Counted from the first letter of the stretch, positions 12,301 through 44,749 are shown. The stretch: DNA of 64,000 bases from Squalus acanthias (GCA_030390025.1 CM059432.1:40178001-40242000), one strand, 5' to 3'. A program made the numbers and translations. Notes: generated by a model not told the origin, from the sequence alone.

Positions 12301-14489
12301 TCCAGTCTCCCCTTGAAAACATTGAGTGTCTCCGCTTCCACCACTTCCCCGTCAGCAGCGAATTCCAGGTCATCACCACTCGCTGCGTAAAAAAGTTTTT
12401 CCTCACGTTCCCCCTGTATCCCTTGTCCAAAACCTTAAATCTGTGTCCCCTAGTCCTTGTACCATCAACTAGTGGGAACAGCCTTTCCCCATCTAGCCTA
12501 TCCAAACCAGTCATAATCTTGTACACCTCTATCAAATCACCCCTCAACCTCCTTTGCTCTAATGAAAACAAATCCAGCTTCTCCAACCTGTCCTTGTAGC
12601 TAAGATTCCCCCATTCCTGGAACGATTCTGGTAAGTCTCCTCTGCACCCTCTCAGAGCCTTCACATCCTTCCTAAAGTGTGGTGACCAGAACTGGACGCA
12701 ATACTCCAGTTGTGGCCTAACCAGCGCTTTATAAAGGTTCAGCATAACTTCTCTACTTTTGTACTCAATACCTCTTTATGAAGCCCAAGATCCCATATGC
12801 TTTGTTAACCACTCTCTCAATATGCTCTGCCACCTTCAGGGACCTATGCACATTAACTCCCAGTTTCCTCTGTCCCTGCACACTCTTTAAAACTGCGCCA
12901 TTAAGTGTATATTGCCTCTCCTGTTCCGTCTGCCAAAATGCATCACCTCACGCTTCTCTGTATTCCATCTGCCCATTCTGTTAGCCTTTCTATGTCCCGT
13001 TGCAGTCGATTGGTATCATCATCACTGTTTGCCACACTCCCAAGTTTGGTGTCATCGGCAAATTTAGAAATTCTACTCTCTATTCCAATATCCAGGTCAT
13101 TTATACATCTCAAAAAAAGCAGTGGCCCCAGCACTGACCCTTGGGGAACACCACTGTCTACCATACTCCAGTCTGAAAAACAGCCAGTTACCACAACTCG
13201 CTGTTTTCTGTCCTTAAGCCAATTCCTTATCTAAGCTGCCACTGACCCACCTATTCCATGAGCCTCAATTTTGTTAACCAGCCTTCTATGTGGTACGTTG
13301 TCAAAAGCCTGAAAATCCATGTAGACAACATCCATTGCATTCCCTTCATCAATCCTCTCTGTTACTTCATCAAAAAATTCATTTAGATTAGTCAAACACA
13401 ATCTGCCTTTTACAAATCTGTGTTGGCTCTCCTTAATTAGCTTAAACCTCACCAAGTGCCCGTTAATTTTTTCCTTGATTATTGTTTCTAAATCTTTACC
13501 CACCACTGATGTTAAACTGACTGGCCTGTAGTTACTAGGATTGTCCTTACACCCTTTCTTGAACAATGGTGTCACATTTGCCACTTTCCAATCCTTAGGC
13601 ACCTCCCCCGCATCTAGGGAAGATTGGAAAATTATGGCAAGCCCTTCTGCTATCTCCTCCCCCAATTCCCTTAGCAACCTGGGATGCAAGCCATCTGAAC
13701 CAGGCGACTTATCCACTCTAAGCATACCCAGCCTTTCTAGTACATCCTGTCTATCAATTTTCACCCCTTCCATTACTTCTACCTTTTCCACTTCTACCGA
13801 TATTTTGTCAGCATCCACCTCCTTAGTAAACCCCGATACAAAGTACTCATTGAGTATTCTAGCCTTGCCCTGTGCCTCTAAGCATATATCACCACCTTTG
13901 TCTCGAGTAGGCCCCACCCTGCCTCTTACTACCCGCTTACTGTTAACATGCCGGTAGAAGATTTTTGGGTTCCCTTTTATGTTAACCTCCATTCTACTCT
14001 CATATTCTCTCTCTGCCAATCTTATTTTCATCATCACATCCCCTCTCAACTTAGTGTATTTGGTCTGGTTCTCCCTTGAAGAATTCACCTGACATGCATC
14101 ATACACCCTCTTTTTTTGTTTCATCATCTTCTCTATCTCCCTCGTCATCCAAGGAGCCCTTGCTTTGGTTCCCTTACCCTTCCCTTTTGTTGGAATGTAC
14201 CTAACCTATACTTGGAACATCTCCTCCTTAAAGATCACCCATTGTTCCATTACAGTTTTCCCTGTCAGTCTTTGGTTCCATTTTACCCTGGCTAGATCCT
14301 TTGCATCCCATTGAAGTTAGCCCTATTCCAGTTTAGAAGTTCCACTCTAGATTGTTTCTTGCTCCTCGCCATTGCTAATCTAAATCTTATGATACGATGA
14401 TCACTCGTACCCAAGTGTTCTCCCACAGACACTTGGTCAACCTGACCCATTCATTCCCCAGCACCAAATCCAGCAATGCCTCCTTCCTA

Positions 14490-14653
14490 CAAAAGCAAAA
14501 TACTGCGGATGCTGGAAATCTGAAATAAAAACAGAAAATGCTGGAAATACTCAGCAGGTCAGGCAGCATCTGTGGAGAGAGAAACAGAGTTAACGTTTCA
14601 GGTCGATGACCCTTCGTCAGACCTGCTGAGTATTTCCAGCATTTTCTGTTTTT
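14490..14653 (-). mobile_element. Penelope-like terminal fragment with inverted partial copy, inserted in CR1 endonuclease
   Basis: 14-bp duplication ATGCCTCCTTCCTA (14476-14489, 14654-14667), visible as duplicated RKEA in the flanking ORFs. Inverted repeat 14527-14559 / 14621-14653. Hammerhead core CTGACGA..GAAACGTT on minus. Confidence 0.8.
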
Positions 14654-15064
14654 ATGCCTCCTTCCTAGTTGGATCAAGAACATATTGGTCAAGGAACTTC
14701 TCCTGGACACATTTCAGAAATTCCTCCCCCTCCTTTCCCTTTATCCTAGCATTATCCCAATCGATATTTGGGTAATTAAAGTCCCCCAATATCACCACTC
14801 TATAGCTCTTGCATATCTCTGCGATTTCCCTGCAGATTTGCTCCTCAACCTCCCACTCACTATTTGGAGGCCTGTAGAATACCCCCAATAGCGTGATCAT
14901 ACCTTTTTTGCTCCTCATCTCTAACCAAATGGATTCTGTCCTTGTCCCCTCAAGAACATCCTCCCTTTCCAACACTACAATGTCTTCCTTAATCAGCACT
15001 GCCACCCCACCTCCCTTTCTTCTTTCCCTATCTTTTCTGAACACCTTGTACCCTTGAATATGAA

Positions 15065-15688
15065 GGGGGCGATTTTGCCAGCCCTGGGGAGGTGGGTATG
15101 GAGGCGGGACTGCCGGGAAAATGGCAGAATTTAGAGGCGAGTACTGGGTCTGCGGGGGTCGGGGGGGGGGTGCAAAAGTGTGGTGTGAAGGTAAATGATG
15201 GGTGCAAGAGTGGAGAGGTGAGTATCTGAGGTAAGTGCAAAGTGTTAGTAAAAGTGTACTTACCTTTGTTTCTCCCTGCAGGCTTCAGTCAGTGTGTATG
15301 CGGAGAGTCTCGGACCTCCGTGTTGCAGATGAGAGATGGCCGTTGCATTCTCAGATGCAACAACCATCTCATTTCTGTAAAAGAAAGAAGTTTGATGAGA
15401 ATTCAAGACCTCATCAAACTACAGAGAATGTCACTGTTTGACAGCTTCACAGAGCTGTCAAACGATGACAATTCATCTGTCAAAAATTTTTGACAGATGA
15501 AACGTCATACGTTGACGTTCTCTGCAACTGGCTTTCCCTTACTTGGACTGCTTAGCCCGCAGGGCGGGCTTAACCAGGTCAATCAAGGGAAAATAGCGTG
15601 GGTTGGCCACAAATTGATGGAGGCGGGACATCGACCCGCCAAGCAGCAGTCCCGCCTCCAATGCGTCCCCATTAACAAAATCACCCCC
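15065..15688. mobile_element. PIF/Harbinger-type MITE
   Basis: TIRs GGGGGCGATTTTG / CAAAATCACCCCC, 3-bp flanks GAA/TAA; interrupts the CR1. Confidence 0.75.
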
Positions 15689-41175: not shown

Positions 41176-42101
41176 AGTCACATGCTAAACTAAAGTGACT
41201 TGGGCCTAGTAGCCCAATAAGCCCACTCTTTGAAACAGAATCCAGAGAGAGAGATGGAAGCAGAAACCTCAGCAAATAATTAATATACAGAATGCTGTAG
41301 CTGCACTCTAAACTAAACTGAACTAAAAAATTTCTTACCACAGAAGGTAAACTAACTGACTGTAACGACCCGTTTTGGCTCTGTCTTCCTTTTTAAAAAT
41401 GAGCACTACACTGGCTACTCTGCAGTCCTCCAGTACACATTCACACTCAATAGAGCCCTGAAATATAAGTGTTCGGGTCTCTGCAATTTCCTGTCTCAAC
41501 TCCTTCAGGATCCTAGGATGTTTCTTGTCAGGCCCTGGTGCTTTGCTTTCCCTCAGCTTAATGAATTTACCTAAAATTTTCCTTTTATCCATCGTAATAT
41601 TGCTCATCTCACTCTCAACTACTTCAGGACTCATCTCCTCTCCAATATCCTTCTCTTGGTAAATACCGATGCGAAGTATTTATTATATACCTCTGCCATT
41701 TTATGATAATTCTCTACAAATTGACAATCCTCCTCTCAAAGCTCCCACCTCGCTTTTAACAATTCTATTTTTTATTGATATATTTATAAAATACCCTACT
41801 GTTCATTTTGATGGGGGGGTTTTGAATTTTTTTCCTCATTCTCCCTCTTAGCTTCTTTATCCCATTCTTAATCACTTTTATTACTTTCTCATCTTCTCCT
41901 TTAGCTTTTTCAATATTGTTATTCTTGTAGTCCTTGTCTTCAATTTTAATTGGTTTCTAATCTCTTTATGCATGGCCTCCTAAATCTACGAGTAGTTTCC
42001 ATCTTTTTGAATGGAATATACTTATTCTGCACCGTTGCAATTTCTTATTTTAAAGGCATAAGCTCTACAAAGCAAAATACTGCAGATGCTGGAAATCTGA
42101 A

Positions 42102-43080
42102 ATAGAGTCATAGAGTCATAACGGCACAGCAGGAGGCCACTCGGCCCATCGAGTCTGCGTCGGCTCTCCGCAGAGCAATTCAGTCAGTCCCACTCCCCCG
42201 CTCCATCCCCGCAGCCCTGCAAGTCCATTTCCCCCAAGGGCCTATCCAGTCCCCCCCCCAAAAGACATTGCGTGTGTCCGCTTCCACCACTTCCATCGGC
42301 AGCGAGCTCCAGGTCCCTACCACCCGACATGCAAAAAAGTTTTTCCCCACATCCCCCCTGCATCTCTTGCCCAAAACCTTAAATCTGTGTCACCCAGTCC
42401 CCGCACCATCAACCAGCGGGAACAGCCCATCCAAACCCGCCATAATCTTGTACACCTCTATCAAATCACCCCTCAACCTCCTCCGCTCCAATGAAAACAA
42501 ATCCAGCCTCTCCAACCCATCCCTGTAGCCAAGATCCCCCATCCCAGAACCACTCCGGCAAATCTCCTCTGCACCCTCTCAAGGGCCCCCACATCCCTCC
42601 CAAAGCGCGGCGTCCAGAACTGGATGCAACACCCCAGCCGTGGCCCAACCAGTGCTCCACAAAGGCCCAGCACAACCTCCCTACCCCTGCGATCAACACC
42701 TCCATTCATGAAACCCAAGATCCCACACGCTCTGCCAACCACCCTCCCAATATGTCCTGTCACCCCCCACGGACCCACGCACACTAACTCCCAGGTCCCT
42801 CTGTCCCCGCGCATACCCCAAAACCATGCCATCAAATGTACACTGCCTCTCCCTGTTCCCCCCACCAAAATCCATCACCCAACACCTCTCCGCACCAAAC
42901 TCCATCCGCCACCCATCTGCCCACTCTGCCAGCCCCTCTATGCACTGCTGCGGTCGACCGGCACCACCCCCACTGCCCGCCACACCCCCAAGTCCGGTGC
43001 CATCGGCAAACCTAGAAATTCTACTTTGTATTCCAATATCCAGGTCATTTATATATATCAAAAAAAGCAGTGGCCCCAGT
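42102..43080 (-). mobile_element. 5'-truncated CR1 copy with strand-specific A>G hypermutation
   Basis: Colinear with ~12167-13130. RT motif SKFADDTKLGSVANSDDD reads SRFADGTGLGGVAGSGGG. Confidence 0.92.
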
Positions 43081-43167
43081 CAAAAAAAGCAGTGTCCTCT
43101 GATAATAAAAACAGAAAATACTGGAAATACTCAGCAGGTCAGTCAGCATCTGTGGAGAGAGAAACAG

Positions 43168-43204
43168 AATTAACGTTTCAGGTCGGTGACCTTTCGTCAG
43201 AACT
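43168..43204 (-). ncRNA. Minimal hammerhead ribozyme motif (Penelope-associated)
   Basis: Minus: AGTT-CTGACGA-AAGGTCACCGACCT-GAAA-CGTT-AATT. Confidence 0.55.
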
Positions 43205-44749
43205 CGTGAGTTGCTCTACAGTCCTGTGTGCCACATTTCTCCTTCCACCTTACCTCAGCCTCACTCTTTATCTTTCTAATATCTGTCCAATTAGATCTGG
43301 TGCATTTTTTTGTACTGACTAATTCCCTTTCTATTTGAATCTTAAACCTTATCATATTGTGATCACTACTCTCGGGGTGCTCACCCACATTTAGCTCATC
43401 TACCTGATCTATTTGCAAACATACTCATAACCAGATCTAAAAATGCCTCTGCCCTTGTAGGCCTACTAACATACTGCTTGAGGAAGGAGTCATGCACACA
43501 TTTTAGGAATTCTATTCCCTTTTCTTCTTTACTTGCTCTCTGTCTCAATCGATAAGTGGATAATTAAAGTCTCCAGAATAATAATGTTGTAATTCCTACT
43601 CATCTCTCTAATCTGACTACAGATTTCTTCTTCCATTTCCTTTCCATGATTTGGAGATCTATAATACCCCCCACTAATGTATCAAGCCCTTTTTTTATAT
43701 TTGAGCTCCAACCATACTGACTCTGTCACTACCCCTTCCTCGTCAACATCAACCCTCACTATGACATGTATTCCCCCTTTTACCAATATTGCCATTCTGC
43801 CTCCTTTCTTAACATTTTTAATCCCTAAATATATTATATTCTAATATGTTTATTTTCTATTCTTGTCTAGTTTTCTATCAAGCTTAGATTTTCCTGAAAA
43901 ATAATTGCTTCCAGTTCTGCCTAGTTAATTTCCACACTCTGTGCATTACAATACATGCATTTTAACCATTTCTTTCACTTTAAAAAAAAACACTATTCCT
44001 TTTCCCATAACTTTTTGTCTAAGCTATGCATACCTTCACTTCAGCCTTTTCCCCGTTCATTTGATTTTATTCCTCTACTCTATATCCCTCTTGCTAAATT
44101 GTTTTCTTCATATTATCCTCATCCATTTCTCCTTTCTCTATTAGCTAATCCTATTTTTTTTATAGTTTCCCAGCATCCCCCTTCCTAATTTCAAAACCTC
44201 ATCACTTCCCTATTTAACCATTTTGCTCGTACATTAACACCCTGCCTGTTCAGATGTAGCCCATCCTTACAAAGTAGCTCCCATCTGTCCCAGAACTGGT
44301 GCAAATGCCCAACAATGTGGAATCCCTCTTCCTGACACCACTCTTTAGCCATGCATTGATTTCCCTAATCTTCCTGTCCTTCCCTGTTCTAGTGCAAATC
44401 CAGCTCCTAAGCATGTTTCCTAATCTCCTAAACTAATTTTGCAGGATTTCAATCCTGACTTTACGCACATCAATGGCTCTCACATGGACCACCATAACTG
44501 GTTGCTCTCCTTCCCTTTATGGAGCAGGTGCAATAAATATCAGACAAATGTATACTCTAATTATGTATTTTTTTTGAATAGTTTGATCTGGAACCTGTTA
44601 AATATAGCGATAGGCTCCCACACAGCTCAGACATCAAGCAAACTAAAAAAAAAGTCTTGTGAATTGTTGGTCAGTGTTGGTATTCACCATTAAAGGGTAA
44701 GACGACACATGATCAGTGGTGTACATTCAAGGAGTTATTTTACAACTTC

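Follow-up and report, generated by a model that had tools for sequence, protein, structure and literature searches.

Retroelement sequences can carry the marks of host deaminases into DNA, and two such enzyme families have been described in this role. A>G hypermutated proviruses have been attributed to ADAR in Rous-associated virus 1 (RAV-1), avian leukosis virus (ALV), HTLV-2, STLV-3 and BLV (PMC12925331, PMC8025556). In the available text of these two sources, duplexed RNA is hyperedited (up to ~50% of adenosines), reverse-transcribed and integrated, and leaves A>G clusters in DNA, much like those that we describe here. The viruses concerned are exogenous, however, the cells are somatic or cultured, and some of the clusters are short (~70 bp in BLV), according to the same text. 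Here the element is a non-LTR LINE that uses target-primed reverse transcription, the edited blocks span 0.3–2 kb in at least nine copies, and the copies have reached germ-line fixation, one of them (copy A) being shared with another species label.

APOBEC-type G>A fossils have been catalogued in vertebrate retroelements (Knisbacher & Levanon 2016, PMC4866542; Zaranek et al. 2010, PMC2873906). As far as the available portions of those papers go, they share with the present copies a hypermutation by a host deaminase before or during integration, visible as clusters of mismatches, on one strand and in one direction, to relatives or a consensus. They differ in enzyme class, in substrate (cDNA there, dsRNA here) and in direction: here the change is sense A>G, over a G>A background of 9/146. 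The method of the later survey, in the part of the source at hand, chose alignments dominated by G-to-A and not those dominated by A-to-G or C-to-T (PMC4866542), so that the A>G class seen here would have been screened out there.

At the RNA level, chicken CR1 3' fragments pair mutually and are massively hyper-edited, and the elephant shark has ~200,000 hyper-editing sites, in the accessible text of Porath et al. 2017 (PMC5625713). The element type and the enzyme signature of that account are the same as in our copies, but the editing reported there is transient and seen in RNA-seq over unchanged DNA, whereas in our case the DNA itself is altered. ADAR1 has also been found to restrict human LINE-1 independently of editing, and the available section of that report gives no editing in >2.5 kb of L1 RNA (Orecchini et al. 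2017, PMC5224506). Both cases bring ADAR together with a LINE ribonucleoprotein; in contrast to that account as available, the editing here is extensive and integration was not prevented. Restriction of L1 without editing implies, within the limits of that excerpt, that LINE RNA is not an established substrate on the path from hyperediting to integration, which counts against the reading that we prefer below.

In the full-text literature, whose coverage leaves out most subscription journals, we found no report of germ-line-fixed LINE copies hyperedited by ADAR. Writing in Ann N Y Acad Sci in 2015, Knisbacher and Levanon reportedly discussed ADAR editing of retroelement RNA, although not integrated ADAR-edited copies.

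A truncated CR1-like insertion in a host repeat

The window, the whole 64,000-nucleotide stretch of Squalus acanthias DNA that we analysed, holds both the hyperedited copy A and an unedited sister, copy B (Table 1). Copy A has its sense strand on the minus strand of the window, and its 3' end, at the low coordinates, consists of two ATGACTCT octamers. On either side lie 9–10 nt of the host repeat, forming a target-site duplication (TSD) of ~9 nt, and the insertion point is bridged by an uninterrupted copy of the same host repeat inside B (~14487–14660). The initial annotation extended the element to 43080, which we correct: CR1 homology stops at 43079, and the nucleotides from there to the right TSD copy are junction filler. 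The filler has the look of a small template jump, or else of a microhomology join made as reverse transcription ended.

Table 1. Features of copy A, its insertion site and sister copy B, in window coordinates
Feature	Position	Strand	Description
Sister copy B	12164..15284	-	Near full-length CR1-like LINE; decayed endonuclease and RT reading frames; unedited comparator
Left flank	42065..42104	.	Host repeat, unedited; 40/41 aligned positions match; 0 T>C
Left TSD copy	42096..42104	.	TCTGAAATA; belongs to the host repeat entered by the LINE
Copy A	42105..43079	-	5'-truncated CR1-like LINE insertion; homologous to 12164-13131 of sister B
Hyperedited block of copy A	42140..43012	-	873 nt; 117 sense A>G at 254 scorable sites (46%)
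Unedited 5' portion of copy A	43013..43079	-	0/20 sites changed; p ~1e-5 at the in-block rate
5' junction filler	43080..43097	.	18 nt: 15-nt repeat of 43058-43072 plus TCC; read from the sequence
Right TSD copy	43098..43107	.	TCTGATAATA
Right flank	43098..43211	.	Host repeat, unedited; 92% identical to the copy inside B; 0 T>C

Contigs from public sequencing runs show no position in either flank of copy A at which the window has C and the family T. Many of these contigs join ~42099–42104 to ~43104–43125 and represent other host-repeat copies, which lack the LINE. The host repeat (42065–42104 plus 43098–43211, and 14487–14660) is palindromic, with ends that are mutually reverse-complementary in the copy inside B, and it is extremely abundant, with a summed contig depth of 10^5–10^6 in all four runs examined. 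It resembles a SINE or MITE of the hairpin-forming type and would be a likely dsRNA source in its own right.

In sister copy B, matches to RVT_1, Exo_endo_phos and Exo_endo_phos_2 are all above the Pfam cut-offs, and a copy of the host repeat splits the element at 14490–14653, a stretch that other family copies skip. A common 3' start, at B coordinate 12162–12171, is found in 40 of the 41 aligned family copies (the exception, L032, starts at 12194), and the 5' ends of the 41 range from 13002 to beyond 14380. All 17 of the 3' ends displayed have an octamer-type terminus, with one to three ATGACTCT units followed by unrelated flanks; four of them (B, L035, L040 and L003) have base changes or a shorter unit. 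A 3' end without poly(A) that closes in short direct repeats is a hallmark of CR1-type elements. The combination of an ORF2 with endonuclease plus RT, octamers in place of poly(A) and 5' truncation supports a CR1-type architecture, and 'CR1-like' is the safest label for a family assigned by its architecture and 3' end rather than by phylogeny. With a TSD around it, and with the common 3' end and variable 5' truncation of its family, copy A has the features of target-primed retrotransposition. One 32-mer of the element, taken in its unedited form, matches 13,742 places in the 3.7-Gb genome when up to three mismatches are allowed.

Two subfamilies can be distinguished over 2.3 kb, with ~88% (L044–L056) and ~93% (L058–L070) identity to B. 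Some loci hold CR1 3' fragments in inverted pairs. At L042, two such fragments lie head-to-head ~50 nt apart (168–959, reverse, and 1011–1995, forward; 73% and 92% match to B), and a similar, more diverged pair occurs at L024 (1501–2475 and 3923–3132). If co-transcribed, a pair of the L042 type would fold into a long duplex of the kind that is hyperedited by ADAR.

A one-strand spectrum of derived changes

The initial annotation compared 42585–42690 of copy A with 12657–12762 of sister B. Over these 106 ungapped nucleotides our recount is identical to the earlier one, with 27 differences that comprise 24 T>C, 2 C>T and 1 A>T; 24 of the 32 available T sites are changed, and both C>T changes fall at CpG in sister B. 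The alignment, which had been described as gapless, is so over this stretch only and has eight indels over the full length. Across the whole copy there are 118 T>C among 176 mismatches to B.

We polarized these changes by the per-column majority of 30 relatives, namely B and 29 other copies from the genome. Of the 9,513 first-look candidates in the search for relatives, 40 were scored; copy A alone matched at 100% and the next best at 82%. Two of the relatives, L029 and L030, span part of copy A only, and their ends are misaligned in the majority comparison. Against this majority, copy A has T>C on the plus strand, equivalent to sense A>G, at 117/279 sites, compared with 4/229 for A>G (Fisher p 3e-31). 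Strand-symmetric AT>GC change, which the initial annotation had named as a sign of biased gene conversion, is thus not what we see against the family majority. The other transitions, C>T at 12/314 and G>A at 9/146, are similarly rare, and all 11 classes other than T>C amount to 40 changes, or 36 without A>G. Plus-strand C>T is sense G>A, the class that APOBEC-type editing would produce, and at 12/314 it forms no excess in copy A; sister B is not the mutated copy.

Each of the 30 relatives has 0–14 T>C against the majority. This excess in copy A alone means that plus-strand C (sense G) is the derived state and that copy A is the outlier. The same polarity had been argued from the conserved RT motif, and that argument is upheld: FADDTKL in B has become FADGTGL in copy A. 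In an all-against-all comparison of the window and 29 loci (~180 kb; aligned pairs of at least 200 bp), 62 of 1,891 pairs were skewed, with a single transition class accounting for half or more of their mismatches, and every one of these involves copy A. The footprint expected of ADAR, A>G only and on one strand of the molecule, is found in copy A and in the eight further copies described below.

Divergence in classes other than T>C is 4.4% for copy A, 3.3–3.9% for four other hyperedited copies and 7.6% for a further one, L040. The value for copy A is near that of its relatives, so its age is about equal to theirs. L040 falls within the more distant of the two CR1 subfamilies, and hyperediting is therefore not confined to one subfamily or one time.

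Within copy A, the changes form a dense cluster, with tens of per cent of adenosines altered over hundreds of bases. The cluster ends before the 5' end of the insertion (Table 1); on the low-coordinate (3') side just two scorable sites lie ahead of the first edit, and the 3' limit is uninformative. Because the changes are confined within the inserted cDNA and the flanks are clean, they predate integration. The claim that this process leaves GC- and CpG-rich dead copies also holds numerically, with a GC content of 0.598 in the block compared with 0.478 in B, 35 CpGs compared with 20, and a CpG observed/expected ratio of 0.62 compared with 0.47.

Preference for the 5' neighbour

Editing in the copy A block depends on the base 5' of the adenosine (chi-square p 9e-10). 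The edited fraction is 75% after U (33/44), 67% after A (40/60), 43% after C (23/54) and 22% after G (20/89), and there is no significant effect of the 3' neighbour in the same block (p 0.76). ADARs order their 5' neighbours as U~A>C>G, with G depleted. For the 106-nt stretch, the earlier tally of 8/14 after C or G is reproduced exactly, whereas that of 16/18 after U or A becomes 15/17 in our count. The ADAR-like preference that had been drawn from this small stretch stands on the larger samples, comprising 254 sites in copy A and 2,236 in five other copies. Pooled over those five, the rates are 50% after U (213/427), 45% after A (314/696), 28% after C (121/430) and 12% after G (82/683) (p 2e-52). 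Five copies cover a common block of 127 sites. Of these sites, 22 are edited in every copy, always with U (12) or A (10) on the 5' side, and 19 are edited in no copy, always with G (15) or C (4) there.

Eight further hyperedited copies

A genome search with 42585–43012 returned normal copies that plateau at 77%, together with five hits unlike the plateau copies, of which four lie above the plateau (83%, 82%, 81% and 78%) and one, L040, at 76%. No identical G-rich copy was found in this genome, which agrees with the initial view of a single edited transcript rather than a subfamily or duplication; apart from copy A itself, nothing matches its edited block at more than 83%. Sister B matches the five atypical hits at 76.5–88.7%, compared with 91–93% for the six normal copies fetched. 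Scored against the majority of 36 normal rows, which themselves have 1–12 T>C each, the five carry plus-strand T>C at 186/685 (L032), 87/632 (L033), 166/692 (L034), 32/273 (L035) and 259/704 sites (L040), with 12, 10, 5, 4 and 10 opposite A>G changes, respectively. One normal row, L005, is misaligned, with all classes inflated; it is left out of these ranges and of the private-mutation counts below, but is among the rows that set the majority.

Probes made of exact patterns from edited copies matched 5, 3 and 2 places with up to three mismatches, and the control, the probes read backwards, matched 0. Three new loci came from these probes. Over 1 kb each, and compared with B only, they have sense A>G and T>C counts of 72 and 3, 39 and 2, and 29 and 5. 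There are thus eight further insertions with their own blocks of sense A>G, of 29–259 changes each, and nine verified hyperedited copies including copy A. Set against the 13,742 places of the unedited 32-mer, this is about one per few thousand, with nine as a lower bound because the probes catch only patterns near known ones. Long edited queries and two 440-nt queries of the genome returned plateaus of normal copies only. The 26 loci fetched from the long edited queries are normal in all four transition classes. Including these, 61 loci were fetched besides the hyperedited ones, and none of the transition classes is in excess among them.

In each of the nine copies the changes are on the sense strand of the element, however the copy is oriented in its contig, a uniformity that is partly due to ascertainment, as edited probes found the eight. 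The nine are on separate contigs or widely spaced, the flanks that follow the octamer tail differ, and so do the 5' ends. The sets of edited sites are not nested: copy A and L032 share 54 sites, with 59 found in copy A only and 23 in L032 only. Overlap between edited sites is nevertheless above the prediction of a uniform model (for example, 54 shared compared with 35 expected). We attribute the excess to site preference under the 5' neighbour rule, although it also fits partial common descent.

Of its private derived alleles outside the editing class, copy A shares 0–3 with the other edited copies; among 595 pairs of normal copies, the mean number of shared private mutations is 1.85 and the maximum 9. 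L040 shares 7 with L033 and 10 with L034, mostly CpG transitions, and also shares 10 with the normal copy L020. These sequence comparisons support the view that the nine hyperedited copies would represent independent events.

Internal blocks with sharp limits

The edited stretch of several copies lies in the interior of the insertion, which is unedited over long parts to either side of it. L032 is edited at ~12702–13587 (B coordinates) inside a copy that spans 12194–14354, and L033 at ~12710–13578 inside a copy that spans 12167–14180; L034 is edited at ~12693–13655. The block of L040 exceeds 2 kb and holds its 259 changes, and blocks across the copies span 0.3–2 kb. Rates of 46–60% per site within blocks adjoin ~0% outside them. 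Such sharp limits beside unedited cDNA point to an enzyme limited by a duplex and not to a bias of the polymerase or of the nucleotide pool.

Five copies (L032, L033, L034, L071 and L072) have a block start within ~40 nt of 12700 in B coordinates, and L032 and L033 also nearly share the block end, at ~13580. The common start hints at one recurrent antisense partner, although it is partly an effect of ascertainment, the probes lying just inside this limit. The 3' terminus is unedited in all nine copies, over lengths that range from ~30 nt in copy A to ~700 nt or more in L073; such a pattern would be compatible with a requirement that the 3' recognition element be intact.

Copy A in independent DNA

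The edited sequence of copy A recurs at single-copy depth in DNA contigs from two samples and studies, which is a check of the kind that the initial annotation had proposed. Contig X1, 350 nt over 42719–43042, has 2 differences from the window and keeps 51 of 52 edited sites. Contig X2, 467 nt over 42576–43042, covers 79 edited sites with 6 differences, and of the five that are itemized two fall on edited sites. Either X1 or X2 may come from the sample of the assembly itself, but not both; at least one is therefore independent of the assembly, and copy A is no assembly artefact.

A third contig, from run X6 under another species label, covers 44 edited sites in 308 nt over 42560–42838. It has 19 differences and 1 gap, and none of the 11 differences that are itemized reverts an edited site. 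The left flank of copy A is also present in run X6 and in a further run, X8, with 13 differences in 295 nt. Copy A is a germ-line insertion, and it is most likely older than the split between the species labels. At two edited sites the assembly has C and a run has T, namely 42976 (X1 and X2) and 42611 (X2 and X8); these sites are either polymorphic or were reverted after insertion.

Origin of the edited copies

We consider that these copies began as RNA. Sense CR1 RNA would pair with antisense CR1-containing RNA to form a long duplex, in which an ADAR-type adenosine deaminase would turn about half of the duplexed adenosines into inosine. A CR1 reverse transcriptase, acting where a chromosomal target is nicked, would then use this RNA as its template and take inosine for G, giving a 5'-truncated product that would become fixed in the germ line. 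Which enzyme acted, the duplex partner of the RNA, the cell type or tissue and the timing relative to translation are our reading of what is observed, that is, the one-strand spectrum of derived changes, the limits of the blocks, the 5' neighbour rule, the anatomy of the insertion, the presence in independent DNA and the recurrence in eight further copies. On this evidence the editing fossil proposed in the initial annotation is supported, and we put the probability of ADAR hyperediting of a CR1 RNA duplex, followed by target-primed reverse transcription and fixation, at roughly 0.87. Exons with the A_deamin domain lie at 6 loci in the genome, although such loci also include genes of the ADAD/ADAT type, and A_deamin genes are expected in any animal. 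It had further been suggested that the RT was supplied in trans if editing came before translation. This is plausible, as the blocks cover the region of the RT active site, yet editing after translation would also serve.

A one-strand spectrum that arose before integration and is confined to the insertion would equally result if the CR1 RT misincorporated dC opposite template A, for example from a skewed dNTP pool, with no RNA editing at all; hypermutation through pool bias is a classical idea for retroviruses. Such an error would not be expected to respect sharp blocks, however, and the edits have unedited cDNA on both sides in L032 and L033, stop short of the 5' end in copy A (0/20) and occur at 46–60% per site beside ~0% outside. 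The 5' order also matches the U~A>C>G of ADAR, and we regard misincorporation as very unlikely. Much the same low credence goes to a change of the DNA after integration, whether through ADAR acting on dA in R-loops (RNA:DNA hybrids), through a transcription-coupled asymmetry of mutation or through GC-biased gene conversion. The copy A locus is GC-enriched, as such a process could leave it, and deoxyadenosine in DNA:RNA hybrids can serve ADARs as a substrate in vitro (Zheng et al. 2017, as cited in the available text of PMC12925331), but the edits stop inside the insertion, the flanking host repeat has 0 T>C, and the sense strand of the element is the one changed in all nine copies regardless of orientation, in part through ascertainment. 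Biased gene conversion in particular is strand-symmetric and is ruled out by the asymmetry of 117 T>C to 4 A>G.

Other G-rich copies do exist, with more G sites in common than expected under a uniform model, as would be the case for members of a G-rich CR1 subfamily or of a segmental duplication in which G is ancestral and the 'normal' copies form another subfamily. That account is largely refuted by the 83% best non-self match to the copy A block, by site sets that are not nested and by how few derived alleles outside the editing class copy A shares (0–3, compared with a mean of 1.85 in the 595 normal pairs). It must also contend with hot and cold sites that obey the 5' neighbour rule exactly and with a conserved RT motif that is broken in the supposed ancestral form, and we find it scarcely credible. 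An error of assembly or sequencing would have had to arise at single-copy depth in the DNA contigs of two studies and again in a run of another species label, and can be set aside with near certainty.

Hyperediting of CR1 RNA by ADAR ahead of reverse transcription may be extended to a more general proposal, which we advance tentatively and with more doubt than confidence. In this lineage, inosine-rich LINE RNAs may be a regular, if rare, substrate of germ-line retrotransposition, perhaps retained in the nucleus and mobilized in trans via their unedited 3' recognition end, and the shared block limits may record one recurrent antisense partner, which could be an internal antisense transcript or else come from a source locus that carries an inverted fragment.

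Significance of edited retrocopies

The hyperedited copies form a small recurrent class, rather than a single copy, and are apparently undescribed RNA-editing fossils, although built from known parts. If our reading is correct, an RNA with about half of its adenosines as inosine was still copied by a LINE RT and reached the germ line. ADAR hyperediting would thus be mutagenic for the offspring of retroelements and not just a block to them, and would complement the G>A record left by APOBEC enzymes. Each copy would freeze one edited RNA molecule, with neighbour preferences, duplex limits and editing density that are legible without RNA.

For the genome, the process would convert AT-leaning sequence into GC-rich sequence in a single step (GC from 0.48 to 0.60 and CpG observed/expected from 0.47 to 0.62), and the edited segments may be raw material for new regulatory sequence. 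They are also a trap for the dating of repeats, in which edited copies appear ~12% older than their true age. If inosine-rich LINE RNAs are indeed a recurrent substrate, these copies would be a fossil record of the specificity of ancient germ-line ADAR and of the architecture of its dsRNA, as well as an instant source of GC- and CpG-rich sequence.
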